Shown: positions 17,794 through 45,618, counted from the first letter of the stretch. The stretch is 64,000 bases of DNA from an uncultured Verrucomicrobiae bacterium (GCA_963837955.1 CAWIPH010000002.1:1280001-1344000); one strand, 5' to 3'. Program-made: numbers and translations. Notes: generated from the letters alone by a model not told the origin.

Positions 17794-17798
17794 TGGAG

Positions 17799-19584: not shown

Positions 19585-19619
19585 GAACGTGTTAGACGAC
19601 CCACGAGATCAATCTGGAA

Positions 19620-29301: not shown

Positions 29302-29516
29302 CGGTTCAAAGCGCCGAAGGCGCGATTTAGGATAGCCTAGAGGGCGAAGCCCCAGGATTGGGATCATTAGAAAAGGTCAGCGCTGAAAGCGCGTGACAAT
29401 GTGAGATTAGGGCAATGGCGAGACGCACCTTCAGTGCGTGACCGCAAGGGGGGGCAGATTTCCTAGGGCTTCACCCTAGAGGCTATCCTAAATCGCGCGT
29501 TCCGCGCTTTGAACCG
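29302..29516. repeat. long imperfect inverted repeat, CCTTCAG family
   Basis: CGGTTCAAAGCGC..GCGCGATTTAGGATAGCCT ... AGGCTATCCTAAATCGCGC..GCGCTTTGAACCG. Confidence 0.85.
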
Positions 29517-29538: not shown

Positions 29539-30402
29539 TCAATGGTCGGCGGTCCCCGGCAGCACCGTCTTAAAATAGGCTTGGAGTGCGTCCAGCGTGG
29601 ACGCGTCAAAGGTCGGATGGGGCGGCATCGCCACGTTTGGTTTGAATTTCTGCGGGTTCACGACGTATTGGCGAAAGTAATCTCCGTTGTAAACCGCGTT
29701 GGCCGCCAATACCTGCCATGGTCGCTGAGCCATTTTACCGCCCGCCAGACCGTTGTTGTGACAAGAGACGCAACTGCCGATAGCAATCTTTTGACCCTTG
29801 ACTGCTTCCGGATTGCTCCGATTGGCGGAATCGAATTTTCCGAGTGAAAACGCGTAGCTAGTTAGCTCGACGGAAACAATCCCAAACGGGATACGCGCAG
29901 CTTCCGTGTAGCCGTAAATTACTTCCGATGGTTGAAAGTCTGCGTGGACAACACAGTAAGGACCCATGGCCGAATTGTGTTCGGATTTCGGCCAGTCAGC
30001 GGGGGGCTTCCCGTCGTATTTAAGCAGAAAGATCGGATGATGTTTGTCGTTGTATTCAGGGTCGTAGTACTGCTGATAGCCATCGTAACAATTGGCGCCG
30101 AGTACGGTCTGATCCGATGAGCTTTGCAGCGCCTGAATCAAAGCATTGAGATAGACACCAGTGTAAGTCGCGGGCTGCTTGGTATTAGGATCCTCAGCTG
30201 TCTTTATCGTGACCAGCGGAAGGGTTAGAAGTTGTTCGTACTGGTAGTAAAGTGGAGCTGAAGGTGATCCATCCGGTTTGATACCGATCACTTCCAAATC
30301 CTGTGAACTACTTCGAGTGGGGGATCCCGTGAGGAGGCCGCCGTACGCTGGTAGGAGAGGAACCAGTACGGAGATGATTGCGGCAAAGCAAAAGGGGCGC
30401 AT
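29539..30402 (-). CDS. exported protein with C-terminal cytochrome c and an uncharacterised N-terminal domain
   Basis: signal peptide from ATG 30402; CVSCH and AMPPH; N-domain YTGVYL..L...CYDGY...GPY loosely resembles molybdopterin-oxidoreductase-like domains. Confidence 0.7.
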   Translation of the reverse strand: MRPFCFAAIISVLVPLLPAYGGLLTGSPTRSSSQDLEVIGIKPDGSPSAPLYYQYEQLLTLPLVTIKTAEDPNTKQPATYTGVYLNALIQALQSSSDQTVLGANCYDGYQQYYDPEYNDKHHPIFLLKYDGKPPADWPKSEHNSAMGPYCVVHADFQPSEVIYGYTEAARIPFGIVSVELTSYAFSLGKFDSANRSNPEAVKGQKIAIGSCVSCHNNGLAGGKMAQRPWQVLAANAVYNGDYFRQYVVNPQKFKPNVAMPPHPTFDASTLDALQAYFKTVLPGTADH

Positions 30403-30416
30403 GCACTTCGGAGCGA

Positions 30417-30432
30417 AGCAACATTGGTGCCA
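30417..30432 (-). promoter_or_regulatory. sigma54 promoter
   Basis: TGGCAC CAATG TTGCT, a full consensus match. Confidence 0.8.
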
Positions 30433-30483
30433 CCTGCTCATTGGTCGCCGGTAGGGATGCGCTCCCGCGTCCTAGTCTCATTC

Positions 30484-30692
30484 GGTAGGGCGAAAACCTC
30501 GGCGCGCTGAGATTCGCGCAATCTCACTTATCGTGGCTCGCGCCGGGTTTGAGCCACGCGCGGGATTAATCGCTGATTCGTCTCTAGGGGAGATATCAAC
30601 GCGATAGGAAGATCAGGAAATCGACGCCCTTGGACTCATCACGGACGGCTCAAGCCGATCCCGCTGAGACGGTATCAGGCTTTCGCCCTACC
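30484..30692. repeat. GGTAGGGCGAAA-family element (solo copy of the array arms)
   Basis: same arms as the 20648 units with a different centre. Confidence 0.85.
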
Positions 30693-30714
30693 AATCACGA
30701 TCACCGATCACCGA

Positions 30715-31536
30715 TCACTCCTCAAGCGTGACACTCAGTCGTTCGATCGCTGCATTGTTAAACTCTTCGCGCAGTTCCGCATGGGAGGTGAAGCGGGAAG
30801 GTTGAACAAATCGTGCAGGAAAATGGATGGTTAGGGGACTCTTCGCGAAAGGATAAGGATTAAGCCGGAAATGGCGTTGACCCAAATGTTCGACATTAAT
30901 TGCTTGGCGGGCGCCGTCTTTCACCGGCAGAGCATGCAAGAGATTCCCCTGAAGCTGGTAATCAACACAGGTCAGCAGCGAAAGATTATCGCAGGCTTGT
31001 AGGAGATGGAAATTATCAACGATCCGCTCCTCGGTTAAATCCTCTGGGGAGTGATCATCGATCTCAGCGAGTTCTTTTTTGGTCGTCGCTTGAAACTCTT
31101 GTTGAGCGCGCAAAAAACTCTCCAACAAAGGTAGTTCATCTGCAGCGATCGTCCGATGGTCAGCTCGATTCTGGAGAAGGTCGTAAGTATGCATCGAGAC
31201 GAGCAACCCCGCGTATAGGTTCTTTGCGGCAACTTTCTTTACAGCTGTTTCCCGCACCGCCAAATAATCTCGCAGATCGATCTCTTCAAACGCTGAATAC
31301 TTACCGACTAATTCGGACGAAAAGGCACTGGGTTTGCCTTGTTTGGTGATTTCCGGACTCGAGTCGCGTTGCTCCCAGCCATCGTCGTGGGTACTGATAC
31401 CCTCCAAGACATCGTCGCGCGGTTCCGGTCGAACAAACAGACTATTGCCCCAATGGATGGCGAACATCCCCGCCAGCCGAGCGTGATCAACGTGGCTAAC
31501 CAACCACCATCCCGTATCGGATTCTAATCGAAGCAT
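30715..31536 (-). CDS. DUF3891-like protein
   Basis: DHARLAG..A.HWGN, HDDGW, YAGLLVSMH, LQACDNLSL..C, PYPF. Confidence 0.7.
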   Translation of the reverse strand: MLRLESDTGWWLVSHVDHARLAGMFAIHWGNSLFVRPEPRDDVLEGISTHDDGWEQRDSSPEITKQGKPSAFSSELVGKYSAFEEIDLRDYLAVRETAVKKVAAKNLYAGLLVSMHTYDLLQNRADHRTIAADELPLLESFLRAQQEFQATTKKELAEIDDHSPEDLTEERIVDNFHLLQACDNLSLLTCVDYQLQGNLLHALPVKDGARQAINVEHLGQRHFRLNPYPFAKSPLTIHFPARFVQPSRFTSHAELREEFNNAAIERLSVTLEE

Positions 31537-31538
31537 AA

Positions 31539-32342
31539 TTAATCGTTTTCCTGACTCAACGCAGATTCGTGCCAATGATGTAGAAAATACCACTCGAGAA
31601 AACTGACAAAGAAGAAGAAGGCAAACCCCAGAGCGGTGGCGACGAATACAAGCGCGAAAAGATAGTCCGTTTGCAATTGCGAATTAGCATACATGATAGA
31701 GTAGCCGATTCCGCCTTCACCAACTCGACTGGACCCGGCGAAAAGTTCTCCGGTAATGCCGCCGATCACTGCGATACCGCTCGAAATTCGAAGCCCCACG
31801 AAGAGGGAGGGGACAGCATGAGGCAGCCGGAGTTTCCAGAAAGTTTGGGCTCGAGACGCGTTGTGCATCGCGAAAAGACTCACCAAGTTCTTATCCACAC
31901 TAATGAGTCCCTGGGTGGCGTTAGCGATGATTGGGGCCAGGCAGATAATGAATGTGATTAGGCAGACAGAGACGGTGCCGGGTCCAGCCCACATGACGAT
32001 CAATGGTGAGATCGCAACGATGGGAACAGTTTGCAGCAAGATCGTGTATGGATAGAGCATGCGGCGGATCCAGCGAGATTGAGCGAATACGATCGCGATG
32101 ATCATTCCGGCCACGACGCTGGCCAGTAGCCCGAGAAGCACTGCGCTCGACGTGATCCGCAAAGCGTTGAACAACGATTCGCGTCGATTGCAGACAGCGA
32201 GCACCACTGCCCAGGGAGAAGGAAGGATGAACCACGGGATGCGAAAGACCAAAATGATGCTCTCCCAAATAGCGCAGAGAACGCAAAAGATCAGTACTAC
32301 ACTGAGCAAATCGATCAGCCGATGCTTTAGAGGTAATTTCAT
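31539..32342 (-). CDS. ABC transporter permease (NitT/TauT family)
   Basis: LPSP, QTVPIVAISPL, KLRLP.A.P..F.GLRI. Confidence 0.9.
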   Translation of the reverse strand: MKLPLKHRLIDLLSVVLIFCVLCAIWESIILVFRIPWFILPSPWAVVLAVCNRRESLFNALRITSSAVLLGLLASVVAGMIIAIVFAQSRWIRRMLYPYTILLQTVPIVAISPLIVMWAGPGTVSVCLITFIICLAPIIANATQGLISVDKNLVSLFAMHNASRAQTFWKLRLPHAVPSLFVGLRISSGIAVIGGITGELFAGSSRVGEGGIGYSIMYANSQLQTDYLFALVFVATALGFAFFFFVSFLEWYFLHHWHESALSQEND

Positions 32343-32356
32343 CCGTTGCGCCGGTA

Positions 32357-33175
32357 TTAGGGCTGCTGAAAGACGCTGCGAAGCTTGTGTGAGACTTCCA
32401 ATACCGCTTGTTCGTATTCAGCACAGAGTCGCAGATCGGCATTTCTAGGAGCGTCAAAGCGAATCGGTATTTCGTGCGCGATCCGGCCAGGGTGGGTCGC
32501 CAAAACGATGATGCGATCGGAAAGGAATACTGCTTCGGCGACAGAGTGGGTAACGAATAGAGCCGTCCAACGATTTTCGGCGCGCAAACGCAGAAGCTCT
32601 TCGTTGAGCCGGTCACGAGTCATTTCGTCCAGGGCTGCAAACGGTTCATCCATCAAGAGTACTTCGGGTCGACCGGAGAGAGCGCGGGCGATAGAGACGC
32701 GCATCTTCATTCCTCCGGAAAGTTGCCGAGGAAATTGACCTGCTACGTCGGTAAGTCCGACCAATGCCAAGGCAGACGTCGCCTTTTCTTTGCGCCGGGC
32801 GCGGCTTTCGGCGTGCAATTCGAGGCTCAGTTCGACGTTTCGTTGAACTGTTCTCCAAGGGAGAAGCGTGGCGTCTTGAAACATGAAAGCCATGATCTCG
32901 CGAGCGTTCACCGGTTCCATGCCGTCAATCGAGATTTTCCCAGAGGAAATAGGGCTCAACCCGGCGATCAATTTCAGCAGCGTCGACTTACCGCAGCCAG
33001 AGGGGCCGATGATGCTCACGAACTCCGATGGGTAAACATTCAGGCGGATTCGATCCAAAACATAAGTTCCGTTTGGGTATGTCTTGCTTACCTCCCGGAT
33101 CTCGATCTGGGGACGATTCGCGGCCTGTTCGCCAGTCTGTTGCATCGATTTCACGGCGGGCGTCGGTGATCTCAT
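32357..33175 (-). CDS. ABC transporter ATP-binding protein (NitT/TauT family)
   Basis: GPSGCGKST, LSGGM, LMDEPF, FVTH; start uncertain. Confidence 0.9.
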   Translation of the reverse strand: MRSPTPAVKSMQQTGEQAANRPQIEIREVSKTYPNGTYVLDRIRLNVYPSEFVSIIGPSGCGKSTLLKLIAGLSPISSGKISIDGMEPVNAREIMAFMFQDATLLPWRTVQRNVELSLELHAESRARRKEKATSALALVGLTDVAGQFPRQLSGGMKMRVSIARALSGRPEVLLMDEPFAALDEMTRDRLNEELLRLRAENRWTALFVTHSVAEAVFLSDRIIVLATHPGRIAHEIPIRFDAPRNADLRLCAEYEQAVLEVSHKLRSVFQQP

Positions 33176-33204
33176 TTTGGGCACGATATATCTGTTACCG
33201 CGCA

Positions 33205-34887
33205 CTAGGCAGCGATCGGCAGATCGAGTCGGGAAGGCGCGTTCCGTTCATGGAGAATCCCCTGCGTTGCTTTACGCCAAGTCCAGGGATCCGCTGCCGG
33301 TGGCGGCACCGAGCAACCGGGGTTACGGTCGTACAAGGGAAAGGCGGAACTAGCGATCTCCAGCCGGATGCGCTCGCCGGCTGCGAATACACAAGAGGTG
33401 GGCTCGAATTCAAATTCCCACCGTATCGGCTCATCGGGCAGAAAACCGTCCGGAAACAGCCAATCGGATCGCGCGATGCCGATGCAAACAAATTCGGCAC
33501 GGCCGTCGCACCGCAGACGAACCAGCTTACCAACAAAATCCGTCGATTGTCTCGAGCTAGTTGCAAACAACACTAATTTCGGATGGCCAAACACATGAAG
33601 CGGTTGGTCTAACGGAGCCGAAGTGTAAACAAGGAGGTTGTTCCCTTGTTCCAAGTTGTATTGATCAAAGCAGCCGGGCGCGGCAGTAATTCCTCCAGGA
33701 GCGATGACCGGAACTTCCGGATCGTAGACGTACAAGTCGCGCGGTTCCTCGCGATCTGGGACAGCCGCGCTTAGTTCGCCGTCGCCGTGGGCGGAGTTCG
33801 CTTTGCCGGCGCTGCGAAGGTAAAAACTTCGGTTCTCCCGAGGCCAGCTTTGGGCGGTGTACCATCGATTAGCGCCGAGTGCGAAATGCCGAATGGGCGG
33901 TTCGTTCGCAAATTCCTCGCTGCCCTTTAACCAATGATTAAACCAGCGTAGAAGGACCAGATTCGTGTCCCACGCAGCTGCCTCGCCGAGATCGATATCT
34001 CCAACTCGAGTTCCCCAGGGAATATGAATCCAAGGACCCGCGATGAGGTACTGATTTGGGCAGCCAGCCGATCGGAGAGCAAGAAAACTATCGATACTTC
34101 CCTTGAGATAAAGATCGTACCAGCCTGAGAGGTGAAGAGTCGGAAGCTGTGGCAATCGTCCGCTCAGATCGAACGCACGCCAATAGTCATCAAAGTGACG
34201 ATGATGGATCCAGTCCTTTACATAAGAAGGCGTACCAGGTGTTTCCAAGGCCGGCAACGCGCGGTAAGGCGCATGCCAGGCTTGCTGACGGAGGTTCAAC
34301 CAGGCCTCTTCCAGTGCGCGGTTGGCTTCCTCTAAGCCGTTACGGCGAACGTCTTCCCGCGACATCTGGATTCCCCAACCAAGGGTAGCCGCGAGCCGCA
34401 AGGCACCGTTATGATAAAACCACCCGGGGTAAAGGTCGTGCGTGGTCATCCAAGGTGCGATCGCAACCAATCCCGGAGCTTGCTCTGCCGCAGCCAGAAA
34501 TTGGGTAGCTCCCTGATAAGAGAAACCATACATGCCGATTTTGCCGTTGCAGGCCGGATGCTGAACCAGCCAGGAGAGCGTGTCGAAGCCGTCAACGCCC
34601 TCGTTGCGAAACGGATAGAATGTTCCTTCGGAGTCGCCTCGTCCCCGAACATCCTGAATGACGACATGATAACCAGCTCGGGCAAACCAGACCGGATGCG
34701 CGTACACGACGGTCGAAGCGATCTCGCGTCCGTAGGGTTGCCGCATGAGAAGGGTGGGGGCGGGGACAGATCCAGCGGGATAGTAATGGTCCGAGATCAG
34801 AGTGGTACCGTCACGCATGCGACACGGAACCGAGCGTTCCAGTCGCACCCCATTTCCGCAGTCGATCAAATGGGCAGCGGACTTCAT
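33205..34887 (-). CDS. CocE/NonD family hydrolase
   Basis: MRDG..L, R.PY, QDVRGRGDSEG, GFSYQG, GWYD, GPWIH. Confidence 0.9.
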   Translation of the reverse strand: MKSAAHLIDCGNGVRLERSVPCRMRDGTTLISDHYYPAGSVPAPTLLMRQPYGREIASTVVYAHPVWFARAGYHVVIQDVRGRGDSEGTFYPFRNEGVDGFDTLSWLVQHPACNGKIGMYGFSYQGATQFLAAAEQAPGLVAIAPWMTTHDLYPGWFYHNGALRLAATLGWGIQMSREDVRRNGLEEANRALEEAWLNLRQQAWHAPYRALPALETPGTPSYVKDWIHHRHFDDYWRAFDLSGRLPQLPTLHLSGWYDLYLKGSIDSFLALRSAGCPNQYLIAGPWIHIPWGTRVGDIDLGEAAAWDTNLVLLRWFNHWLKGSEEFANEPPIRHFALGANRWYTAQSWPRENRSFYLRSAGKANSAHGDGELSAAVPDREEPRDLYVYDPEVPVIAPGGITAAPGCFDQYNLEQGNNLLVYTSAPLDQPLHVFGHPKLVLFATSSRQSTDFVGKLVRLRCDGRAEFVCIGIARSDWLFPDGFLPDEPIRWEFEFEPTSCVFAAGERIRLEIASSAFPLYDRNPGCSVPPPAADPWTWRKATQGILHERNAPSRLDLPIAA

Positions 34888-35678
34888 TGGGAGTGAGGGC
34901 CTTTAAACGTCGCCATTGCTATTAAGGCGTCGGCTACCTTTCGCGCCATTGCCGCCAACCATCGCTGTCCCTTTTCCGCGGTTGAAGGTCGGGGATCACC
35001 CAATACACCGGACGCAGCAATATCTTTGGTGAGCCAGGCAAAAGTGGCGGGACCATTCTCCGGTAGCAACGCTTCCGGTTTGGAGAGGTCCGCAATATAA
35101 TTCACGGAGTACTGATCCGTCTTGACTAGCTCTGGGCACCCAGCCAGCAACAGCGAAGTCTCCAGCTCACCGGCGTGATATCCATACGCTTTTTCTTGGG
35201 GATCGAGTCCGACAAATGTGGCGCCCCCCGAAGCGCTTAAGCAGAAGGTCCGCAGCCCAAATTCGGCCCGCAGATCGCGAGCCATGACGTCGACCGCCGA
35301 AGTATTTCCGCCATGAGAATTGTAAAGGACGAGTCGCCGAAAGCCGGCGCTGGCTAAACTAGAACCGATATCGCGAACGACCGCCATGAATGTCGTTGCC
35401 GAAAGAGCCAGGGTACCGGCATAACCAATGTGTTCATTGCTCTTTCCGTAACAGACCGGTGGCAGCGCAAAGATAGAGGCTTCGGGTGGCAACAGCTGAA
35501 GTGCGTGCCCGAGGGCTAGATTGTTAATCAAAGTGTCGGTGGCCAGCGGCAGATGGTAACCATGCTGTTCAATCGCAGCGGTAGGTAGAACGAGGAGAGT
35601 ACTCTCGCGCGGTAAACGGTCTACCTCTTGCCAAGTGAGATAAGCGAACTGGCGATCGTCAGGAATCCAGGTTTTCAC
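34884..35678 (-). CDS. creatininase family amidohydrolase
   Basis: EQHG.HLP..TD, NSHGGN, HAGELET, G..GDP. Confidence 0.9.
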   Translation of the reverse strand: MKTWIPDDRQFAYLTWQEVDRLPRESTLLVLPTAAIEQHGYHLPLATDTLINNLALGHALQLLPPEASIFALPPVCYGKSNEHIGYAGTLALSATTFMAVVRDIGSSLASAGFRRLVLYNSHGGNTSAVDVMARDLRAEFGLRTFCLSASGGATFVGLDPQEKAYGYHAGELETSLLLAGCPELVKTDQYSVNYIADLSKPEALLPENGPATFAWLTKDIAASGVLGDPRPSTAEKGQRWLAAMARKVADALIAMATFKGPHSQ

Positions 35679-37045
35679 GACTGCGCCAAGGTCGGTTCTT
35701 CCTTCCGAAACGTCACCATTTTGCCAGGATTTAGCAGCCCGTTCGGATCAAATAGATACTTAGCTCGGAGCTGCCGATTGTCGGCCCGAAAACGACCGCC
35801 GCCTTCGACTTGGTTCACGTGAGGATTCGCAATGCTCACCCCGATTTCGCGGCAATGATCAATCATTTCGTTGAGATAAGGTTCAGTTCGATAGCGAACG
35901 ATTGGCAGACAGCTGGGGATGACTCGACCGCCTTCATTCTTAACCATTTCCATATGGAGCAAGAAGTCGTTGCCAAAGCGCTTGCGGAGTAACCGGAATT
36001 GTTCGCGTACTCGATCGGGATCAAAGCTGCATTGCAAATAGGTTAACCCGGAATCGACTTTGATGGCCCAAAGCGTGGTGTGATTCCAGGTGTAATCGGT
36101 CAACAGCGGACCGCGCCGAGGCTCCTGGTAGGGCTGGGCAAAGGTGACTTGGCCATCGGCCTGTTCTGCTTGGGTGACGAGTTCGGGAAGCTGCGGATTA
36201 TCTACTTGGCAAAAAATTATCGCCTTTTCTTCCGGACATATTTTCCGAACCGGAAGGAAGTAGCTCGGAATAGGCCATTCGAAAATCGTCACCAACCGTT
36301 TTCGGATTTCTTCGGATTGCGCGAGCGTTTCGCCGAAGTCGTACGCCTCGGTAAACGATGGAAAAGCGATGGCCGCTTGGGCCCAATCCCGACGTGTCCC
36401 CAGTGCCAACCAAATCTTCGTGATGATTCCATTCGTTCCCCATGAGTGTAGGATTTGGTGAACTTCATCCCCAGCAAAACGAAGAAGTCGTGGCGCCTTC
36501 TCCATTGTTAAAATTTCTATCGCGCGAACAGTTTGATTGTCCCGTAATCCGCCGTAAGTGATCGATCCAATCCCGCCGGAGCCGCCGGCCAGAAAACCTC
36601 CAACCGACGCCTTTACATAAGTGCTCGGGTAGCAACGCAGTTCCCAGCCCACTTTGCGTGCTGCCGTCTCGATAGCGGCCAGCCGGGCGCCCGGTTCGCA
36701 GACGGCTACGCCCTCCGGCTCGATAGCGAGGATCTGGTCCATTGACGCCAAATCCAAAACCACACCACCGGCCAACGGAACAGCCTGCCCGTAATTTCCG
36801 GTACCGGAACCACGAACGGTCACCGGTATATTCTCGATAAAACAGTAGGTGAGGATTCTCCTGATCTCTTCAACCGATCGTGGTTGCGCGATTACGTCCG
36901 CCCGTTTGTCGTCGAGGAGAGTCTTGAGGATTGGTGAATACCAATAAAAGTCCTTCGAAAGTCTCTCCACGGCTTGGGGTTCCCGGATTAACGCATTGGT
37001 TCTCCCCAGGCGTGTTTCCAATTCAGCAACGTTGCGTTCGGTCAT
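35675..37045 (-). CDS. FAD-binding oxidoreductase (VAO/PCMH-type)
   Basis: DFYWYSPIL, RGSGTGNYGQ, GGF..GGSGG.GS, DP.GLLNPGK; ATGA overlap with the deaminase stop. Confidence 0.85.
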   Translation of the reverse strand: MTERNVAELETRLGRTNALIREPQAVERLSKDFYWYSPILKTLLDDKRADVIAQPRSVEEIRRILTYCFIENIPVTVRGSGTGNYGQAVPLAGGVVLDLASMDQILAIEPEGVAVCEPGARLAAIETAARKVGWELRCYPSTYVKASVGGFLAGGSGGIGSITYGGLRDNQTVRAIEILTMEKAPRLLRFAGDEVHQILHSWGTNGIITKIWLALGTRRDWAQAAIAFPSFTEAYDFGETLAQSEEIRKRLVTIFEWPIPSYFLPVRKICPEEKAIIFCQVDNPQLPELVTQAEQADGQVTFAQPYQEPRRGPLLTDYTWNHTTLWAIKVDSGLTYLQCSFDPDRVREQFRLLRKRFGNDFLLHMEMVKNEGGRVIPSCLPIVRYRTEPYLNEMIDHCREIGVSIANPHVNQVEGGGRFRADNRQLRAKYLFDPNGLLNPGKMVTFRKEEPTLAQS

Positions 37046-37569
37046 TGGTTGTTTGATCGCCAGATTTTGAATCGCTTGATCATATTCGGATGAGAGAAAA
37101 GCGAGTAACAGAGTTCCGCCTCGACCGGACCAACCACTTCGCAACGCATGTCACTTTTAGACGCGAGCTCACTCGCAGGAACGTAGATTTGGTTACAGTG
37201 GCGAGCGGCGTGTTCGATAGTCGCGCCGTAGACAACGCGATCCAGACCTGCCCAGAGGATGGCTGCCATGCACATCGGACACGGTTCACAGGTTGTATAT
37301 AGAGTGTAACCGCGGAGGAGGTGATTCTTGATCCGTTTGCAGGCAATTCTGATGGCATTCACTTCCGCATGGCAGGTCGGATCCTGTTTTTGGGAGGACT
37401 GATTGACGGCTCGAACCAACATTTTGCGGGACTGAGTATGTATTACCGTGGCCCCGAATGGCACAGGTGTCTCTGTCAGCAATGTTCTTTGGGTGAACCG
37501 AACCAGGCTGACCATTTGCTCCCGATCAAAAGTGGAAAGTCCGGGATCTTTGATTCTTGCGACCGCCAT
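37042..37569 (-). CDS. zinc-dependent nucleobase/nucleoside deaminase (CDA superfamily)
   Basis: PFGA, DPTCHAE, CEPCPMC. Confidence 0.9.
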   Translation of the reverse strand: MAVARIKDPGLSTFDREQMVSLVRFTQRTLLTETPVPFGATVIHTQSRKMLVRAVNQSSQKQDPTCHAEVNAIRIACKRIKNHLLRGYTLYTTCEPCPMCMAAILWAGLDRVVYGATIEHAARHCNQIYVPASELASKSDMRCEVVGPVEAELCYSLFSHPNMIKRFKIWRSNNQ

Positions 37570-37586
37570 CAGTGGGCCGTCATATC

Positions 37587-37602
37587 AGCAGATTTTATTC
37601 CT
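37587..37602 (-). promoter_or_regulatory. possible sigma54 promoter of the deaminase operon
   Basis: AGGAAT AAAAT CTGCT = GG-N10-GC, degenerate. Confidence 0.4.
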
Positions 37603-37903
37603 GAACGCCGAAGCAGCCCATGCCGCCGGAGGGGAGCCGCTTGCGGCTCCCGAGAATAGTCCATGATAGGGCAACGCGAGCGAATCTTTGGACTCGATCC
37701 CTCTGTGCGCGCTGGATTATTTCCGGGCGTCGCACGTGTCCGACGAAGCCTCAGTCGCCTCGTAGGCCATGGCGCACCAAACTTGCGAAGTCGGAAGCAA
37801 CGCCCCTCCGACAGCTCGGCGTCCAGAAATTTCCGGGCATCCAAGTCTGTGGAATTGAACGCTTCTATCCAATTCCGCAGACTTGATGCACTATTGTGTC
37901 CCT

Positions 37904-39214
37904 ATGCGAGGTGGCTCCCCAGACTCCAATCTTACCGAAACCTCTGTGACTGGCTCGCGCCAAAAGATACTGACTAAGGAAATTGGAATTCGGATTCCAA
38001 CCGAGATCGCTAAGAAGCACCGAAATCTTTCTCCGGGTCGCAATACCTATCTCGCAACCAGTGACGAGAACATTAGCCGGCAGCTCGATCAGCTCGATTC
38101 GTCAGATCACGGGGCGCTCGCCGGCATTCCGGTTTCGATCAAAGACTGTTTCGATGTTGCTGGTTATCCGACGAGCGTTGGATCCAGGTTTTATCAGGAA
38201 CAGTCCGGGATTTGTGCGGCTGATTCCGGGGTAGCGCGACGAGTACGTTCGGCTGGCGGGATCATCACGGGGAAGACACACCTCAATCAATTGGCCTATG
38301 GTCTTACCGGCGAAAACCTAGACTTTGGAAACTGTTTGCAGCCAGCGAATCCGGCTCTGCTCACCGGCGGATCCAGCAGCGGAGCTGCCGCCAGCATTTT
38401 AGAAGGCTCGGCCATGTGCGCAATCGGGACCGATACCGGCGGTTCGATACGGTTTCCGGCAAGCCTGTGCGGTTTGTACGGTTTCAGGGCATCTTTGGGA
38501 GTCGGTTCTTGGGAGGGAGGACATCATCTCGCGGAATCGTTCGATACGATTGGATTTCTTTTTCGGCACTTGGAAGACGCACTTCAACTCGGAGAAGCCA
38601 TCTTTGAACTGCCAAGACCAAGAACGGCTCCGCGCTTCAAGACAATCGGAGTCGTCGAGGGAAATTTCCTCCGCGATGCGGAACCGGAGGTATTAGAAGG
38701 AGCACTGGATTGGGGTCGACGCTTGGAGCAGCGCGGATTCTTATTGGAAAAGTTCGCGCCGATTGATTGGGAGGAAGCGTTAGAAGTATTCCGTCCCATT
38801 CAAGCATTCGAAGCAGCCAAGTATCACGCGGGAAATTTCAACCAGTTTGAGCCAGGGATTCGAGCGCGCCTGGAATGGGGAGCGAGTCTTGGGTCAAGTG
38901 AGTTGGAGACGCTACGGGAACGACGTGAATTGTTCGTGCTACGAATGCAGGAACTCTTTGGGCGTTACGATCTTTTACTTTGGCCAGTAGCCCCGATCGC
39001 CAGGCTAGAGAACGGTGCCGATACTCAGCTCGTGCGCGATCGAGTCTTACGTTATACGACGCCCGCGAGCGTTGCCGGATTGCCCTGTTTAGCCTTGCCG
39101 AATCGCGTAGGCGGCGCGCAATTAGCGGCTCCTCACGGGTCAGATCGAGAGCTGCTGCGGGTGGCTTCGCTGCTTGCTGCTACGCGGCAAAGAGAAATGA
39201 CAAATGGGGCGTAA
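37904..39214 (+). CDS. amidase signature family protein
   Basis: SIKDCF, GGSSSG, GTDTGGSIRFPA; start uncertain. Confidence 0.88.
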   Translation: MRGGSPDSNLTETSVTGSRQKILTKEIGIRIPTEIAKKHRNLSPGRNTYLATSDENISRQLDQLDSSDHGALAGIPVSIKDCFDVAGYPTSVGSRFYQEQSGICAADSGVARRVRSAGGIITGKTHLNQLAYGLTGENLDFGNCLQPANPALLTGGSSSGAAASILEGSAMCAIGTDTGGSIRFPASLCGLYGFRASLGVGSWEGGHHLAESFDTIGFLFRHLEDALQLGEAIFELPRPRTAPRFKTIGVVEGNFLRDAEPEVLEGALDWGRRLEQRGFLLEKFAPIDWEEALEVFRPIQAFEAAKYHAGNFNQFEPGIRARLEWGASLGSSELETLRERRELFVLRMQELFGRYDLLLWPVAPIARLENGADTQLVRDRVLRYTTPASVAGLPCLALPNRVGGAQLAAPHGSDRELLRVASLLAATRQREMTNGA

Positions 39215-39222
39215 ACCGACGG

Positions 39223-39353
39223 ACACCCCTGACGACGGAGGGCGAGCCGCTCGCGGCTCCCGGAAGCTATCCATGGCGACCGATCTAGCGTGTTGTTGAT
39301 CGTGGGTAAATCCCGGGAGCCGCAAGCGGCTCGCCCTCCGTCGTCAGGGGTGT
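39223..39353. repeat. inverted repeat element
   Basis: ACACCCCTGACGACGGAGGGCGAGCCGC...GCGGCTCGCCCTCCGTCGTCAGGGGTGT; partial arm at 37628-37652. Confidence 0.85.
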
Positions 39354-39409
39354 TGCTGGTGGACCCATTTGCCAATCTGTCATTTTCCATAGCTGCAACG
39401 CAGCCCGCC

Positions 39410-39425
39410 TGGCACGACTGCTGCT
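39410..39425 (+). promoter_or_regulatory. sigma54 promoter
   Basis: TGGCAC GACTG CTGCT = GG-N10-GC. Confidence 0.7.
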
Positions 39426-39438
39426 ATTTTAGCGGGCG

Positions 39439-40431
39439 ATGATTCGCAGTCTCCTCGCTCTTTGTTGTTCCGGCTCACTGCTGCTGTTAGCCGGATGCAA
39501 CAAAGCCCCAGAACCTCAGAAAACTTCTGAAACGCAGCTTACACCGGTCCGTTTTCTGACCGATTGGTATCCCCAACCAGAACATGGAGGATTCTATAAT
39601 GCCCTGGTCCGCGGCTATTACAAAGAGGCCGGCCTGGATGTAACTATTGAACCAGGTGGCCCAAATATTTATCCGACTCAGCGCGTCCCCGTGGGGGCGG
39701 GAGAGTTTGGTATGGCCTCCTCCGATATTATCCTGAAGACGAATGCGGAAGGTCAAGACCTGGTCGCCGTTGGGGCGACGATGCAGTGGGATCCTCAAGC
39801 GATCATGCTGCACGCGGAAGATCCGGCAAATAGTTTTGCCGATTTGGAAGGTCGAACTATTGCCGCTGTTCCCGGCTCAGTCTGGTTTCTCTATCTGGTG
39901 AAGAAGTTCAATTTTCAGAATGTGAAAGAGATACCCGCGACCTTCACCATAGCGAATTTCTTGCACGACCCTCAGTACATCCAACAGATCTTTGTGACTT
40001 CGGAGCCATTCTTTGTTGAGCAGTCCGGCGGCAGTAAACCGAAAATCCTACTCATCAAGGATACCGGCTACCAGATCTACCGCGTTTTCTTTACGACCCG
40101 AAGCTACATGGAAAAGAATCCGGAAATTGTGCGAAAGTTTGTTGCCGCTTCGGTCAGAGGCTGGCGGGACTATATTCAAGACCCGAGCGCAGCGAATGCC
40201 GAAATCGCCAAACGAAACCCGGAGATGAACGTGGAGCGGATGAAATTTAGCTGGAATGCACTGAAAGAGGGAGGCTTCGTTTACGGTTCGGATCCGAGCG
40301 GAGCCTTAACCGGGAAATTCGACCCACAACGTTGGAACGAAAATTACCAGATTCTGCGAAGCCTGGGAGTTATTACTAAAGATATCGACCCGATGCGAGG
40401 TTACACGCTGGAATTCACGAAGGGCTTATGA
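39439..40431 (+). CDS. ABC substrate-binding lipoprotein, NMT1/THI5-like
   Basis: lipobox LAGC, DWYPQPEHGGFY, GLDVTI.PGGP, SEPF. Confidence 0.88.
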   Translation: MIRSLLALCCSGSLLLLAGCNKAPEPQKTSETQLTPVRFLTDWYPQPEHGGFYNALVRGYYKEAGLDVTIEPGGPNIYPTQRVPVGAGEFGMASSDIILKTNAEGQDLVAVGATMQWDPQAIMLHAEDPANSFADLEGRTIAAVPGSVWFLYLVKKFNFQNVKEIPATFTIANFLHDPQYIQQIFVTSEPFFVEQSGGSKPKILLIKDTGYQIYRVFFTTRSYMEKNPEIVRKFVAASVRGWRDYIQDPSAANAEIAKRNPEMNVERMKFSWNALKEGGFVYGSDPSGALTGKFDPQRWNENYQILRSLGVITKDIDPMRGYTLEFTKGL

Positions 40432-40935
40432 TTTTTCGGAGGTCGATAATTCAGCATCTGGCAGCACCAACAATATCAGGATGATTCCGATGCAGGCGAA
40501 CATCCTGAACGCTGCATCCTGACCATTCCAGATCTTCGATTGCCACATCAGAAACCATTCTCCGCCCACGGACAAGAAAGCGACAAGCCACTGCAAGAGG
40601 CTGAGGGTTAGGCCGATTATTGCCGGGTTCTTGGCCCGTTGAAAAATGGACGAAGGGGATCTTAGATTGCGGAGACTTTTGACAGTTCCCCACCAACAAA
40701 AAGTTGCGGCAACGGCTTCCCAGGCGATGATCGTTGCGTAAAAGAAGGTGTCTTCTAACCCGGAAGTAAGAGCACGCCACTTTCCATGATTTTCAGGGAA
40801 AGTCGTATCCATGCTCAGAACGTGCTCCACGAAATGGTAGTTGGAATCGTAATCGGTCAAGTTGTTGAAAACGACGAGCGTAAGAAAGAAGGCTACGGCG
40901 GCCACGAGAGCTAGCTTGCAGATGCGAAGAGTCAT
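40426..40935 (-). CDS. DUF2165-like membrane protein
   Basis: NNLTDY.SN..FV.HVLSMDT, GGEWF.MWQS..WNGQ. Confidence 0.85.
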   Translation of the reverse strand: MTLRICKLALVAAVAFFLTLVVFNNLTDYDSNYHFVEHVLSMDTTFPENHGKWRALTSGLEDTFFYATIIAWEAVAATFCWWGTVKSLRNLRSPSSIFQRAKNPAIIGLTLSLLQWLVAFLSVGGEWFLMWQSKIWNGQDAAFRMFACIGIILILLVLPDAELSTSEKS

Positions 40936-40950
40936 CGGGTCGGGAGACGA

Positions 40951-40966
40951 AGCATGATATATGCCG
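40951..40966 (-). promoter_or_regulatory. sigma54 promoter
   Basis: CGGCAT ATATC ATGCT = GG-N10-GC. Confidence 0.6.
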
Positions 40967-41090
40967 ATTGTTAGTTAAGTCGCTACAGGCGACGCTGTTG
41001 TCGTTTAGCCATCCTGGCGCTTTTTCGAACGATGTTAAATATATTGCACAGAAATATTCGACCAAATTATCGCGGTTCAAGGAGGTGCCA

Positions 41091-41549
41091 TTGAGTGCAA
41101 TCGAGGCCCGACTCCAGTCGCTCGGATTCGAGCTTCCGGATCCACCTACTCCAGGCGGTAACTACGTCCCGTTCGTCGTCCAGGACCGGTTCGTTTTTTT
41201 GGCCGGAGTCATCTCGATTTCCAACGGTCTGTTGATCGCTGGCACCGTTGGCGCGGACAAAAGTATCCAAGATGGTTACGAAGCGGCGCGGGCGTGTGCT
41301 CTCATTCAGTTGGCGAACCTGAAACTGGCGCTCGGCGATTTAGATCGGCTGCAGCGTATCATATCCCTGAATGGTTATGTGAACGCGGTTCCTGGATTTG
41401 CGGAATCCCCGCAAGTAATAAATGGCGCCTCGGATCTCTTGGTGGAGCTTCTTGGATCGCGCGGGTTGCATGCCCGTGCAGCAATCGGGGTGCCGGCACT
41501 ACCGAAGAACGCCCTGGTCGAAATCCAAATGATTGCGACGATGGAATAA
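41091..41549 (+). CDS. RidA/YjgF family protein
   Basis: LP.PP.P.GNYVP, NGASDLL, HARAAIGV..LP..A.VEI; AAGGAGG SD before TTG 41091. Confidence 0.88.
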   Translation: MSAIEARLQSLGFELPDPPTPGGNYVPFVVQDRFVFLAGVISISNGLLIAGTVGADKSIQDGYEAARACALIQLANLKLALGDLDRLQRIISLNGYVNAVPGFAESPQVINGASDLLVELLGSRGLHARAAIGVPALPKNALVEIQMIATME

Positions 41550-41694
41550 CCCGAAGCATAGCCAGTCACCGAGAACGAACAGCAAGTAGTCTGATGCTCC
41601 GGCCTCAGGGGGACACGTGCGCTGTCGGCTCGATCGTTCATTACTCCAACACCCCATTACTCCATTTGCTATCTGCTATCTGCTATCACCAGCC

Positions 41695-42615
41695 ATGCCT
41701 GAATTTACTTTGACTGCCGCGTCGACACATGACCGTTGGAATCGCGATCTGCCGCCCCAACTGAGGGTTGGCGCCGATGCACTGGTCCATTTTGAATGTT
41801 TGGATTCGAGCGGCGCGCAAGTTGGTCCTGATTCGACTCTGGCCGACTTTCTCCAAATCAATCGAGATAAGATTCACACGCTTACCGGACCGGTCTACGT
41901 CGAAGGAGCACAACCTGGTGACGTTTTGCGAATCGAAATCCTGGAAGTCGCGCATCGTGGATGGGGATGGTCGAGCATCATTCCCAACCTTGGATTCCTA
42001 CACGAACGATTCCCTGAACCATTCTTTTTCATTTGGAAATTGGAAGAAAATATTTCCAAATCGCTCGTTCCAGCGGTCGTACCGTTGCGTCCGTTCTGTG
42101 GAATTATTGGTGTCGCACCCGCAGAAGCGGGCGAATTCCGCACGCGTACCCCCGGAGTTTTTGGGGGCAACATCGATGTGCACGATCTCACTGTTGGATC
42201 AATTCTCTATTTGCCGGTTCAGACCCCTGGAGCTCTTCTCTCTTTGGGTGACGTCCACGCTGCGCAGGGAGATGGAGAGGTTTGCATCAACGGTATTGAG
42301 TGTCCCGCCCAGGTCACGGTGCGGCTAACTCTGGTCAAGAATCAGAAATTGAGCGGACCGTTTGTGGAGAGCCCACGATTGCGGAGAGAGACGGCAGGAG
42401 AGTGGGTGATGGTTGAGTCGGACGCGGACCCGCTCATCGCGGCTCGCCGAGCGACCTTTCGCATGATCGAGTTTCTGGTGGAACGCTGGAATTTATCTCC
42501 GGAGCACGCCTATATACTCTGCAGCGTCGCAATGGATCTACGCCTGGCGCAAGTCGTGAACGTCCCGATAATGACTGTGTGTGCGGGGCTCGAGAAGTCG
42601 ATTTTCGGAGTCTGA
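41695..42615 (+). CDS. acetamidase/formamidase family protein
   Basis: H.LTGPVYVEGA.PGD.L, GGNID, GDVHAAQGDGE. Confidence 0.9.
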   Translation: MPEFTLTAASTHDRWNRDLPPQLRVGADALVHFECLDSSGAQVGPDSTLADFLQINRDKIHTLTGPVYVEGAQPGDVLRIEILEVAHRGWGWSSIIPNLGFLHERFPEPFFFIWKLEENISKSLVPAVVPLRPFCGIIGVAPAEAGEFRTRTPGVFGGNIDVHDLTVGSILYLPVQTPGALLSLGDVHAAQGDGEVCINGIECPAQVTVRLTLVKNQKLSGPFVESPRLRRETAGEWVMVESDADPLIAARRATFRMIEFLVERWNLSPEHAYILCSVAMDLRLAQVVNVPIMTVCAGLEKSIFGV

Positions 42616-42629
42616 CGAATGCATTGTGA

Positions 42630-42820
42630 GTAGGGACGGCGGCTGTCCGTCTTAATTCGGTCCGACGGGAGCCACGCGGCCGCGAGACCCAACGCGGGGA
42701 GGGATCGCGTCTCCGCGATCCGTTGTGGCCGGACCCAAGCGCGTTTGTATACCAAGGGTTAAATTGCGTCCCCAGGTTAGAGATCGTTTTCTCGGCGCGC
42801 GGGGACGCGCGCCCTCCCAG
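42630..42820. repeat. GTAG-started palindromic elements
   Basis: GTAGGGACGG..CCGTC, GGATCGCG..CGCGATCC and GGCGCGCG..CGCGCGCC hairpins. Confidence 0.5.
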
Positions 42821-42921
42821 CGATGGAGCAGGCAAACCATTCTTATGTTGACGCGTATGGACGGGAGCCGGACCTACAGGCGTCTGGCCAGTCTCGCGGC
42901 GGCTCTCCGTATTCCGTATTT

Positions 42922-42937
42922 TGGCATGTTGTGTGCT
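42922..42937 (+). promoter_or_regulatory. possible sigma54 promoter of the LysR gene
   Basis: TGGCAT GTTGT GTGCT = GG-N10-GC. Confidence 0.45.
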
Positions 42938-43002
42938 GGTCATCCAGAGCATGAGTTCGATGGGGAGAGAAGGGTTCGCCAAAATTATCAGCTTATAGGC
43001 CG

Positions 43003-43962
43003 ATGGAACTGCGCCATCTACGTTACTTTGTCGTCGTCGCGGAAGAGCTGAACTTTTGCCGGGCAGCCGAAAGACTGAGGATCGCTCAGCCGCCACTGAG
43101 CGTGCAGATTCGCCATCTCGAAGAAGAGTTAGGCGTTCAGCTTTTCTATCGAATCAAGAGGCGGATAACACTTTCGCCCGCCGGGGAGGTTTTGTTCAGC
43201 CAAGGGCGAAGACTTCTCCGCGAAGCGGAGCAAATCGCGGATCAGGTGCGCGAAGCCGCTTCCGGTAAAACCGGATCGCTTTCGATCGGGTTTGTTGGGA
43301 CGACGATGTACGACATCCTACCAGATGCTTTGCGAATCTTTCGTTCTACCTATCCGAAGATCCAACTAAATCTGGAAGACATTCACAGCGGTCATCAGAT
43401 CCAGGCATTACAACGTCGCAAAATCGACGTCGGCCTTATTCATCCGCCGGTTCAGGAAGTCCTTGTGGAGACGGAAGAAGTTGTGAGTGAAACGCTGATG
43501 GTGGCGTTGCCGGAAAAACATCGGCTTCGGGATCGGACCGCCGTCGCTTTGGCTGACCTGGCCGACGAGCCCTTCTTGATCTGCTCGATCAGCGGTGAAC
43601 CGGGCCTACACAAACTCTGTCTAGGCCTGATTCAGGATGCCGGCTTTCGGCCGCGAGTGGTGCAGGAAGCGACGCACATCCAGACTCAGGTTGGACTGGT
43701 TGCCGCTGGTGTGGGGATTTGTCTGGTGCCATCTTCGGCGACGCGTTTACAGCAGCCGGGCGTGATCTATCGACCCCTGAGCGTTCCCCAGACCAATCTT
43801 ACCAAGCTGATGGTTTGGAGGAAAGGGCCGTGTTCGGCTCATCTTACTGGATTTTTAGGAGCTGTCCGGCAGGCGGCGGCTTTGCTGCGTACCAACGCGG
43901 CAATCAGACGCGCTTGTCGGCCAGCTCCGGAGGTTTGCTTCGCGATGACCGACAGCCCATAG
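43003..43962 (+). CDS. LysR family transcriptional regulator
   Basis: MELRHLRYF..VAEELNF.RAAERL.IAQPPLS HTH. Confidence 0.95.
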   Translation: MELRHLRYFVVVAEELNFCRAAERLRIAQPPLSVQIRHLEEELGVQLFYRIKRRITLSPAGEVLFSQGRRLLREAEQIADQVREAASGKTGSLSIGFVGTTMYDILPDALRIFRSTYPKIQLNLEDIHSGHQIQALQRRKIDVGLIHPPVQEVLVETEEVVSETLMVALPEKHRLRDRTAVALADLADEPFLICSISGEPGLHKLCLGLIQDAGFRPRVVQEATHIQTQVGLVAAGVGICLVPSSATRLQQPGVIYRPLSVPQTNLTKLMVWRKGPCSAHLTGFLGAVRQAAALLRTNAAIRRACRPAPEVCFAMTDSP

Positions 43963-44001: not shown

Positions 44002-44973
44002 TTACCACCCAAGTATCCAAGCAAAAATCAACGGCGCCACGATGGTGGCGTCGGATTCTATCACATACTTCGGCGTGTCCAACGAGAGCTTACCCCAAGT
44101 GATTTTCTCGTTCGGCACGGCGCCTGAGTAGGACCCATAGCTGGTCGTCGAATCGCTAATCTGACAAAAGTAGCCCCAGCGCGGAACGTGCTCGCGTTGC
44201 AGATCCTGATGAAGCATTGGCACGACGCAAATCGGGAAATCACCAGCAATACCGCCGGCGATTTGGAAAAAGCCGATCGATGAGCTGGCGGAAGTCGTGG
44301 TATACCAGTCGGCCAATTGGATCATGTACTCGATGCCGGTACGCACGGTGTGAACATTCTTAACGTCTCCGGAGATGCAGTGGCCGGCATACATGTTACC
44401 TAGCGTCGAGTCTTCCCATCCGGGCACAAACATCGGCAGGCCTTTCTGCATCGCGGCATAAAGCCAGCTATCCTTCGGATCGATCTGATAATACTTTTTC
44501 AAGCGATCGTCTTTCAGGATTCGATAGAAGAATTCGTGCGGGAAAAATTGCCGCCCGTTTTTATCAGCATCTACCCACTCCTCCAGTACGGCCTTTTCGA
44601 TCCGTCGCATCGCCTCTGCTTCGGGGATGCAGGTATCGGTAACTCGGTTCAAGTGTTGATCCAGGAGCGCTTGTTCGTCCTCGCCGCTTAGTTCGCGCCA
44701 ATTGGGAATACGCTTGTAATGATGGTGGGCCACCAGGTTAAACACATCCTCTTCCAGATTTGCTCCGGTGCAGCAGATCGCGTGAATCTTATCCTGCCGG
44801 ATCATCTCCGCCAACGAGAGTCCCAACTCCGCGGTGCTCATCGCGCCCGCTACGGTAACCAACATTTTGCCGCCCTGGTCGAGGTGCCGCTGATATCCTT
44901 GCGCGGCATCTTTGAGGGTTGCCGCATTAAAGTGCCGATAGTGGCGGGAGATAAATTCTGTGATCGTGCCCAT
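44002..44973 (-). CDS. deoxyhypusine synthase-like protein
   Basis: GAMSTAELG, TGANLEED, GSYSGA.PNEKITWGK, SDATI. Confidence 0.9.
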   Translation of the reverse strand: MGTITEFISRHYRHFNAATLKDAAQGYQRHLDQGGKMLVTVAGAMSTAELGLSLAEMIRQDKIHAICCTGANLEEDVFNLVAHHHYKRIPNWRELSGEDEQALLDQHLNRVTDTCIPEAEAMRRIEKAVLEEWVDADKNGRQFFPHEFFYRILKDDRLKKYYQIDPKDSWLYAAMQKGLPMFVPGWEDSTLGNMYAGHCISGDVKNVHTVRTGIEYMIQLADWYTTTSASSSIGFFQIAGGIAGDFPICVVPMLHQDLQREHVPRWGYFCQISDSTTSYGSYSGAVPNEKITWGKLSLDTPKYVIESDATIVAPLIFAWILGW

Positions 44974-45137
44974 TTGCTAGGACCTTCCGAATCTACTAAT
45001 TCTGACAAAAGATCAATGGATGAAATAGCGCATCGCAGATAGCAGATACCAGAGGAAAGATGGCAAAATACAAATGATAAGCTTTGGCTCCGGTTTTGTC
45101 GGGGAGACGCAGCTCCCTAAACTAGATCCAGAAAGAC

Positions 45138-45557: not shown

Positions 45558-45618
45558 TGGATGATTCTTTCGGATCCTGGTAGCGCAACCCGTTGTTGAT
45601 GTTATCGGTTATGCGCGT

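Follow-up and report, generated by a model that had tools for sequence, protein, structure and literature searches.

The return of pterin-ring vitamins and pigments to the nitrogen cycle is poorly known, and in the literature we found one lumazine route and two folate-trimming enzymes. Cupriavidus deaminates pterins to lumazines, which it degrades further to xanthine, with cluster I of Cupriavidus sp. LA-1 encoding a pterin deaminase, a molybdenum (Mo) lumazine dehydrogenase, a 6,7-dihydroxylumazine isomerase, and a UbiD-type xanthine-8-carboxylate decarboxylase; in Rhizobiales and Rhodobacterales a cytosine-deaminase-like protein replaces the pterin deaminase, and Arad_3529 has pterin deaminase activity (PMC12391406). 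In a second report, carboxypeptidase G and a pterin deaminase of Variovorax sp. F1 degrade folic acid, the deaminase acts on folate and pteroate and has a conserved RidA-type ‘endoribonuclease’ gene downstream, and the authors suggest that lumazine-6-carboxylate is then formed by oxidative cleavage, a step that they leave open (PMC9513972). A third system is a proteobacterial gene module around homologs of the flavin oxygenase in Protein Data Bank (PDB) entry 6V42, the biochemistry of which is unpublished as far as our literature searches reach. Here we analyzed a 64,000-nucleotide stretch of DNA from an uncultured Verrucomicrobiae bacterium (GCA_963837955.1 CAWIPH010000002.1:1280001-1344000; hereafter the window), in which positions 29539-43962 hold a cluster of fourteen genes, arranged as two divergent units and two minus-strand singletons (Pfam and NCBIfam). 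Judging from its protein families, this cluster may serve the uptake and stepwise mineralization of a pterin-type heterocycle, most likely folate-derived pterins or pteroyl compounds, and we give this reading a probability of about one half.

The closest link to a described protein is provided by the vanillyl-alcohol oxidase (VAO)-fold enzyme of the cluster, which binds flavin adenine dinucleotide (FAD) by its family. Among solved structures its sole close relative is 6V42/6V43 (phmmer E 2.7e-97, residues 24-446 against 22-445), the next being D-lactate and D-2-hydroxyacid dehydrogenases at E 1e-18, and a folded model of the enzyme (pLDDT 80) retrieved 6V42 at rank 1 in a Foldseek search of the PDB (TM 0.90/0.88, 38% identity). 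The title of the 6V42 entry is ‘Crystal structure of the flavin oxygenase with cofactor bound involved in folate catabolism’. Literature searches on 6V42/6V43 and folate catabolism found no paper describing the 6V42 enzyme, those on creatininase and folate catabolism found none describing the pathway of the cluster, and a paper on riboflavin catabolism (PMC12746152) mentions neither folate nor pterin. A preliminary description of this DNA had called the pathway uncharacterised, and this stands in that no pathway paper was found, but it has to be qualified in that the structure of a homologous enzyme is deposited with a folate-catabolism label. The kind of pathway is hinted at by a PDB entry, and the version in this lineage differs in the fold of its deaminase and in three extra conserved enzymes.

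To place the cluster among related genomes, a one-genome-per-species collection (~186,000 species) was scanned with the FAD enzyme, which gave 274 relatives, and the best 80 loci (59 Acidobacteriota-type, 19 Verrucomicrobiota-type, and 2 other) were analyzed. A window protein was counted as present when tblastn matched it at E ≤ 1e-10 over at least half of the query; because many contigs, including those of several of these loci, are short, the counts are lower bounds. The deaminase was found in 75/80 loci, the creatininase-family gene and the NMT1 binding protein in 73 each, the ATPase in 71, CocE in 70, the permease in 68, DUF3891 in 63, and the amidase in 53. Since these partners recur with the FAD enzyme in 53-75 of the 80 loci, the grouping is far beyond chance, and the cluster is a real conserved catabolic unit. 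The preliminary description had stated that genes failing to co-occur in other genomes would speak against it; the partners in fact recur as a unit in the 80 loci. That they are unrelated neighbors with no single pathway is therefore most improbable: the two strands are separate transcription units and LysR, RidA, FmdA, and DUF2165 occur in a minority of the related loci, as that explanation would have it, but eight partners accompany the FAD enzyme across two phyla, a four-part core is common to Proteobacteria (below), and the operon genes overlap by 1-4 nt. The housekeeping genes flanking the cluster, by comparison, were seen among the 80 loci solely in the same-genus locus. Of 40 related genomes searched, only 2 had a full-length ortholog of the FAD enzyme (88% and 69% identity); in the rest, matches were partial and confined to the FAD-binding domain, and the cluster is therefore an accessory trait.

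All the families named in the preliminary description were placed by Pfam at the positions stated there. The minus-strand operon runs from the deaminase through the FAD enzyme, the creatininase-family enzyme, CocE/NonD, and the ATPase and permease of the ATP-binding cassette (ABC) importer to DUF3891, with the cytochrome c protein gene beyond it; the plus-strand unit consists of the amidase, the NMT1-type binding protein, the RidA-like protein, and the FmdA-family protein, then LysR, with DUF2165 antisense between the binding-protein and RidA genes. The minus-strand genes are translationally coupled, as had been described: the 4-nt overlaps could be read from the sequence as ATGA (deaminase/FAD enzyme), GTGA (FAD enzyme/creatininase), and ATGA (creatininase/CocE), followed by a 1-nt overlap, TAGTG, between CocE and the ATPase, a 14-nt gap between the ATPase and the permease, and a 2-nt spacer before DUF3891 when the ATG at 31536 is taken as its start, which ortholog alignment backs. 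The HAE and PCPMC motifs of the deaminase, the GGSSSG motif of the amidase, and the GFSYQG motif of CocE are intact. The true start of the RidA-like protein is probably later than 40968, its orthologs being 151-161 residues long. In the divergent region neither a consensus promoter nor an Rfam element was called, and a promoter and terminator scan was uninformative, as it gave fewer sites than were found in shuffles. A search of sequencing runs with window positions 33205-38000 listed no RNA run, and the DNA runs were partial only, covering ≤ 0.38 of the words.

Table 1. Features of the cluster, with positions counted from the first nucleotide of the window.
Feature	Coordinates	Strand	Evidence
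Cytochrome c-domain protein, 300 aa, secreted-looking, accessory	29539..30441	-	One CxxCH haem motif; Pfam Cytochrome_CBB3 E 2e-5, below cut-off
DUF3891 protein, last gene of the operon	30715..31536	-	PF13030 E 3.8e-43
ABC importer permease, NitT/TauT-like	31539..32342	-	BPD_transp_1 E 3.8e-26
ABC importer ATPase	32357..33205	-	ABC_tran E 4.5e-32
CocE/NonD-family serine hydrolase (S15)	33205..34887	-	Peptidase_S15 + PepX_C; TIGR00976 414.9 bits vs cut-off 66.3
Creatininase-family metal amidohydrolase	34884..35678	-	PF02633 E 2.7e-66
VAO-fold FAD enzyme (FAD_binding_4 oxidoreductase)	35675..37045	-	Pfam; 6V42 homolog
Small zinc deaminase, cytidine/guanine deaminase (CDA) fold, first gene of the operon	37042..37569	-	dCMP_cyt_deam_1 E 2.9e-23
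Divergent intergenic region between both transcription units	37570..37882	.	Sequence reading
Amidase-signature amidase, divergent from the operon	37883..39214	+	PF01425 E 6.7e-63
NMT1/THI5-like periplasmic binding protein of the ABC importer	39439..40431	+	PF09084 E 4.1e-34
DUF2165 small integral membrane protein, accessory	40426..40935	-	PF09933 E 2.4e-62
RidA-like protein (YjgF_endoribonc)	40968..41549	+	PF14588 E 2.6e-23
FmdA/AmdA acetamidase/formamidase-family amidohydrolase	41617..42615	+	PF03069 E 4.6e-56
LysR-type regulator, possible local regulator	43003..43962	+	HTH_1 + LysR_substrate (Pfam)

Related modules also exist in Proteobacteria. A protein search of plasmid records returned 141 records with a 37-42% identical homolog of the FAD enzyme, 109 of them from Rhizobium, and we inspected six proteobacterial loci, with full gene tables for five (Rhizobium pRL12, a Comamonadaceae plasmid, Pantoea, Mameliella, and Agrobacterium) and an incomplete one for Klebsiella. 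By annotation, all five tabled loci encode a creatininase-family enzyme, a binding-protein ABC importer, the FAD enzyme, a RidA-family protein, and, where the window has the small deaminase, one of the amidohydrolase type (annotated ‘cytosine deaminase’ or ‘amidohydrolase family’); four of the five also encode an NAD(P)H-dependent oxidoreductase. When the window proteins were compared by tblastn with three of the loci (Rhizobium, Klebsiella, and Comamonadaceae), the FAD enzyme (40-42% identity), creatininase (35-38%), binding protein (32-38%), ATPase (47-49%), and permease (36%) found counterparts, and the small deaminase, CocE, DUF3891, and the amidase had no match. The solved relatives of the proteobacterial deaminases are the E. 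coli-type cytosine deaminase and AtzC. The importer, the creatininase-family enzyme, the flavoenzyme, and a deaminase thus form a core spanning three phyla in which the deaminase has one or the other of two unrelated folds, and CocE/NonD is specific to the Acidobacteriota/Verrucomicrobiota variant, given that it is unmatched in the three proteobacterial loci tested.

The window therefore shares with the 6V42-type module a full-length homolog of the flavin oxygenase, the creatininase-family and NMT1-type importer partners, a deaminase gene adjacent to that of the FAD enzyme, and a RidA-family gene. It differs in having the small CDA-fold deaminase instead of the amidohydrolase-type one, in the addition of CocE/NonD, DUF3891, and the amidase-signature amidase, and in lacking the NAD(P)H-dependent oxidoreductase, while its related loci have TonB-type outer-membrane receptors. 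Clustering of all open reading frames (ORFs) of the 80 loci showed that an outer-membrane beta-barrel receptor recurs in 28 and a TonB-dependent receptor in 9. Four Verrucomicrobiota-type loci (L067, L068, L082, and L090) carry cluster variants with an extra 455-residue Amidohydro_1 protein, so that some lineages may possess the two deaminase folds side by side. Two NMT1 ORFs are present in L067 and L082, giving some variants a second NMT1 binding protein, and a separate NMT1-like group (c33) occurs in L040, L067, L088, L089, and L092. A PaoABC-like three-subunit Mo hydroxylase adjoins the clusters of Rhizobium pRL12 (L095 1854-5650), where XdhC and a nucleotidyltransferase accompany it, and of the Agrobacterium plasmid (L104 14151-17955). 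Rhizobium pRL12 also has two tandem ‘amidohydrolase family’ genes 25 kb from the cluster, and a search of 25 kb upstream for the published lumazine genes found no UbiD.

The substrate had been described as a purine, pterin, or pyrimidine derivative. The pterin is now favored from the 6V42 label and the deaminase type of Proteobacteria, and the purine and pyrimidine are less so. Among solved structures, the small deaminase is most similar to deoxycytidine, guanosine, and guanine deaminases (E ~2e-17 to 6e-17), and the yeast-type cytosine deaminase follows at E 7e-15. The substrates of guanine and guanosine deaminases and the pterins have the same 2-amino-4-oxopyrimidine ring, and we propose from these sequence relationships that the small deaminase could be a pterin deaminase acting on this ring. 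Guanine and guanosine deaminases among the top relatives would also suit a purine-derived or other non-pterin 2-amino-4-oxopyrimidine substrate (modified or oxidized guanine, or 7-deazaguanine) with products passing to the ureide pathway, which we consider unlikely, though it is the strongest of the competing explanations. Purine/ureide genes adjoin the cluster in 7-9 Acidobacteriaceae loci, where a fusion of the FAD domain of xanthine dehydrogenase (XDH) with OHCU decarboxylase (8 loci), two M20 hydrolases (9 loci), and a bicupin (7 loci) lie directly upstream. The genome’s own purine locus likewise uses an NMT1-type ABC importer, the binding protein of which is 24% identical to that of the cluster. 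However, a complete canonical purine route is already encoded elsewhere in the genome: the purine/ureide locus (G000:C2:737500-763000; L098, L099), ~540 kb away, contains a fused 1282-aa XDH, XdhC, uricase, OHCU decarboxylase, HIU hydrolase, two M20 hydrolases, an amidohydrolase, adenine and adenosine deaminases, and a bicupin. With this set in place, there is no purine gap for the cluster to fill, and we rejected it as a replacement for missing guanine deaminase, uricase, HIU hydrolase, or allantoinase steps; the folate-catabolism label of the only close solved relative of the FAD enzyme also speaks against a purine.

The creatininase-family enzyme, a universal core member, raises the further alternative of a degradation route for creatinine or for a similar five-membered ring, be it a cyclic amidine or a hydantoin, by deamination to a hydantoin, flavin-dependent oxidation at C5, creatininase-like opening, and amide hydrolysis. 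Known creatinine deaminases belong to the cytosine-deaminase-type enzymes, the families of both deaminase types include cytosine deaminases, and the kinship of the flavoenzyme with 2-hydroxyacid dehydrogenases would suit 5-hydroxyhydantoin. We nevertheless regard this alternative as very unlikely. The protein scored 100.3 bits against the creatininase model TIGR04448, the cut-off of which is 235, and creatininase proper was rejected on this basis. No creatinase, sarcosine oxidase, or N-carbamoylsarcosine amidase was found by name in 15 proteins (NCBIfam) or by family in 21 ORFs (Pfam), and the folate label, the nearby Mo hydroxylases, and the purine genes would be left unexplained. Against the MftE model, the creatininase-family protein reached 124.6 bits with a cut-off of 172. 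For the amidase, the best NCBIfam rows were all below their own cut-offs, and an AtzE-type amidase was rejected (174 bits vs 461 and 161 vs 426 for the AtzE models). Membership in the cyanuric acid pathway (AtzD/E/G/H/F) was likewise rejected, with AtzE below its cut-off and no AtzH-like ORF between FmdA and LysR; elsewhere in the genome AtzH-like matches are weak only.

The solved relatives of the binding protein are all distant (4nmy, THI5, and ThiY), and the presence of ThiY and THI5 among them would accord with salvage or degradation of a pyrimidine, such as a cytosine-type base or the pyrimidine of thiamine together with the formylamino product of its breakdown, in a manner analogous to the Rut pathway. 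The Rut pathway of uracil degradation consists of a flavin oxygenase, an amidohydrolase, a RidA-family protein, an alpha/beta hydrolase, and a transporter, and the window has a similar cast, in which the RidA protein, the alpha/beta hydrolase, and the amidase echo RutC, RutD, and RutB, and ring opening gives reactive enamine or imine intermediates. In addition, the deaminase resembles the yeast-type cytosine deaminase, an acetamidase/formamidase would suit a 2-methyl or 2-H pyrimidine, and creatininase-family members are reported to include formamide hydrolases (PMC9478397). The Rut flavoenzyme is, on the other hand, a luciferase-like monooxygenase and that of the window a VAO type, the hydrolase families differ, and no Rut name was assigned to any of the 15 cluster proteins scanned with NCBIfam. 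The matches to ThiY and THI5 are weak (E 1e-10) and come from among few solved NMT1 proteins, a search of the window region and of 7 related loci gave neither a TPP nor any other riboswitch, and the 6V42 folate label would go unexplained. A pyrimidine substrate therefore seems quite unlikely to us, if slightly less so than creatinine.

A pterin or folate-derived substrate is best supported because the kinship with 6V42, the replacement of the deaminase, the likeness of the small deaminase to guanine deaminase, the RidA link, and the neighboring Mo hydroxylases all point to it. The comparison with the two described pterin degraders introduced above is as follows. The published Cupriavidus cluster I has in common with our proposal an initial deamination of pterin to lumazine, an occurrence in soil bacteria, a product passing to purine catabolism, and Mo hydroxylases in some lineages, but it uses purine/pyrimidine-type permeases where the window has an NMT1 ABC importer, and the words creatininase and ABC transporter occur nowhere (0 occurrences each) in PMC12391406. 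The RidA gene downstream of the Variovorax pterin deaminase matches the RidA genes of the present clusters, and the step to lumazine-6-carboxylate proposed there is a role that a flavin oxygenase could fill. The window cluster lacks the M20 carboxypeptidase G, its deaminase has a different fold, and the Variovorax study, as far as its available text goes, identified no flavoenzyme or creatininase-family enzyme.

From the family assignments, motifs, translational coupling, conservation, exchange of the deaminase fold, and structural kinship with 6V42, we infer the following route. The binding protein, permease, and ATPase would take up the compound, to which an outer-membrane TonB-type receptor would be added in related loci. 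The small zinc deaminase would strip the 2-amino group, converting a pterin to a lumazine, after which the 6V42-like flavoenzyme would oxygenate or oxidatively cleave the deaminated ring system and the creatininase-family enzyme would open a cyclic amide. CocE/NonD and the amidase may cut side-chain or ring-derived amides, in folates perhaps removing glutamate; FmdA may hydrolyze a small amide product, and an AtzH-like protein, which recurs in 22 related loci, may act at the same stage. The RidA-like protein would quench reactive enamine or imine intermediates, and DUF3891 is probably a metal-dependent HD-fold enzyme of the pathway. The net outcome would be the release of ammonia, and ureide and purine catabolism may receive the carbon and nitrogen skeletons. 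The general scheme of import, deamination, flavin-dependent oxidation, hydrolytic ring and amide cleavage, and imine detoxification put forward in the preliminary description fits the families present, so that its interpretation, which can be narrowed to pterins, appears largely right and is partly supported by the comparisons above.

Several observations weigh against a pterin or folate substrate. The link to folate depends on the title of PDB entry 6V42, for which no accompanying paper was found, and since the FAD enzyme is only 38% identical to 6V42 in the Foldseek alignment, its substrate may differ. The scores of the small deaminase against deoxycytidine and cytosine deaminases are almost as good as those against the guanine type, and the likeness of the proteobacterial deaminases to Arad_3529 is one of annotated type, their solved relatives being the E. 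coli-type cytosine deaminase and AtzC. The riboswitch search, with no hit at E ≤ 1 in window positions 26000-47000 and none above gathering scores in the 7 related loci, gave no folate riboswitch. Carboxypeptidase G and p-aminobenzoate genes are absent from the cluster. The Cupriavidus lumazine route itself was rejected, as none of the 21 + 38 window ORFs scanned encodes a Mo lumazine dehydrogenase, an Amidohydro_2 isomerase, or a dedicated UbiD decarboxylase. The one UbiD homolog of the genome (tblastn) sits among UbiA/quinone and molybdenum-cofactor (Moa) genes and is a housekeeping gene; among the 80 loci, a UbiD-family gene recurs in 7.

The presence of CocE, DUF3891, and the amidase, and of outer-membrane receptors in related loci, would be in keeping with a larger substrate, for instance intact folate or pteroate, and it is speculation on our part that CocE might take the place of carboxypeptidase G. 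A more far-reaching combination is possible but on balance doubtful, namely that Acidobacteriota and Verrucomicrobiota carry a complete, undescribed route for the uptake and mineralization of intact folates or pterins, in which a pterin deaminase of the guanine-deaminase fold, a VAO-fold flavin oxygenase attacking lumazine without a Mo hydroxylase, and a CocE/NonD enzyme replacing carboxypeptidase G would act together, with DUF3891 as a new HD-fold metalloenzyme of heterocycle catabolism and DUF2165 and the cytochrome c protein as a new membrane redox module. If the pterin reading is true, there would be a second, widespread pterin-ring route beside the single published lumazine route, present in two of the most abundant soil phyla, the cluster would offer a clean case of a pterin-ring deamination step filled by two unrelated folds, and DUF3891 and DUF2165 would gain testable roles.

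DUF3891 is tentatively read as a metal enzyme, probably with a divergent HD fold followed by a beta domain at the C terminus. Eight residues (H15, D17, H18, H50, D51, H116, D183, and H201) are invariant across 36 orthologs, of which H15/H18, H50-D51, H116, and D183 were set against the H...HD...H...D metal-ligand pattern of HD domains, and the AlphaFold2 model has a pLDDT of 95. HD, HD-GYP, HDOD, or Cas3 proteins made up 9 of the 20 best rows of a wide structural search, the named matches being PgpH, HD-GYP, Cas3 HD, and HDOD, at Z 5-6.6, which is below the tool’s caution line of 8. Foldseek gave nothing at E ≤ 0.001, the comparison of the sequence with solved structures nothing below E 0.2, and a protein atlas its own family only; the Pfam HD models did not match any of the 36 orthologs, and the literature search for DUF3891 found no papers.

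A second, less frequent module comprises DUF2165, the RidA-like protein, FmdA, and the cytochrome c protein, with the AtzH-like protein in relatives only. DUF2165 was present in 17/80 loci, where it usually adjoins the gene for either the binding protein or the cytochrome c protein; the RidA-like protein was present in 15-16/80. FmdA was counted in 17/80 loci at ≥50% coverage and in 30/80 at ≥30%; in many acidobacterial loci it lies at the extreme edge of the 10-kb flank, where many copies are cut. The cytochrome c protein had a tblastn match in 7/80 loci, and homologs with 30-36% identity were found in 8/80, in 6 of which they directly adjoin DUF2165. Because of this adjacency, the preliminary description was right to include DUF2165 and the cytochrome c protein, and these two and DUF3891 have gained a conserved context from the locus counts. 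We propose that DUF2165 is paired with the cytochrome c protein in an accessory membrane/periplasmic role. The cytochrome c protein has a single CVSCH motif at residue 224 in a C-terminal cytochrome c domain, and its N-terminal ~200 residues had no Pfam match even at E 1. LysR, which had been listed as a member, is not conserved: membership is weak because only 2/80 related loci have it. The LysR genes next to the Rhizobium, Agrobacterium, Pantoea, and Klebsiella clusters are unrelated.

Other features of the window were noted around the cluster. Just beyond the cytochrome c gene is a match to the Acido-Lenti-1 RNA model at 34.7 bits (gathering score 37), with a 22-bit second copy on the other strand (29310-29356, minus; 29462-29508, plus). 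The adjoining gene (26838-29093, minus) encodes a 751-residue protein with TIR and TPR domains, which has five more copies in the genome (37-68% identity, tblastn); it probably belongs to a separate expanded family, because it occurs in only 1/80 related loci, that of the same genus. Between this gene and a glmS-like gene, positions 26683-26805 form a ~120-nt near-perfect palindrome with matches on either strand to the MIR862 hairpin model of plants (67.8 and 66.5 bits, below the gathering score of 100); this is probably a long hairpin, e.g. a bidirectional terminator or a repeat element. On the other side, positions 44002-46751 contain a deoxyhypusine-synthase-like gene, a cytochrome c gene, and the PCuAC and SCO1 copper chaperones, four genes common only to the same-genus locus L013, and positions 46825-48313 contain a molybdate-type ABC binding protein and permease. 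An IS200-like (Y1 transposase) gene is located at 10309-10779 on the plus strand. At 16420-20459 on the minus strand, beside a formate/nitrite transporter, a single 1054-residue protein fuses a nitrite/sulfite reductase with a flavodoxin and an FAD-reductase, forming an unusual single-chain assimilatory reductase.

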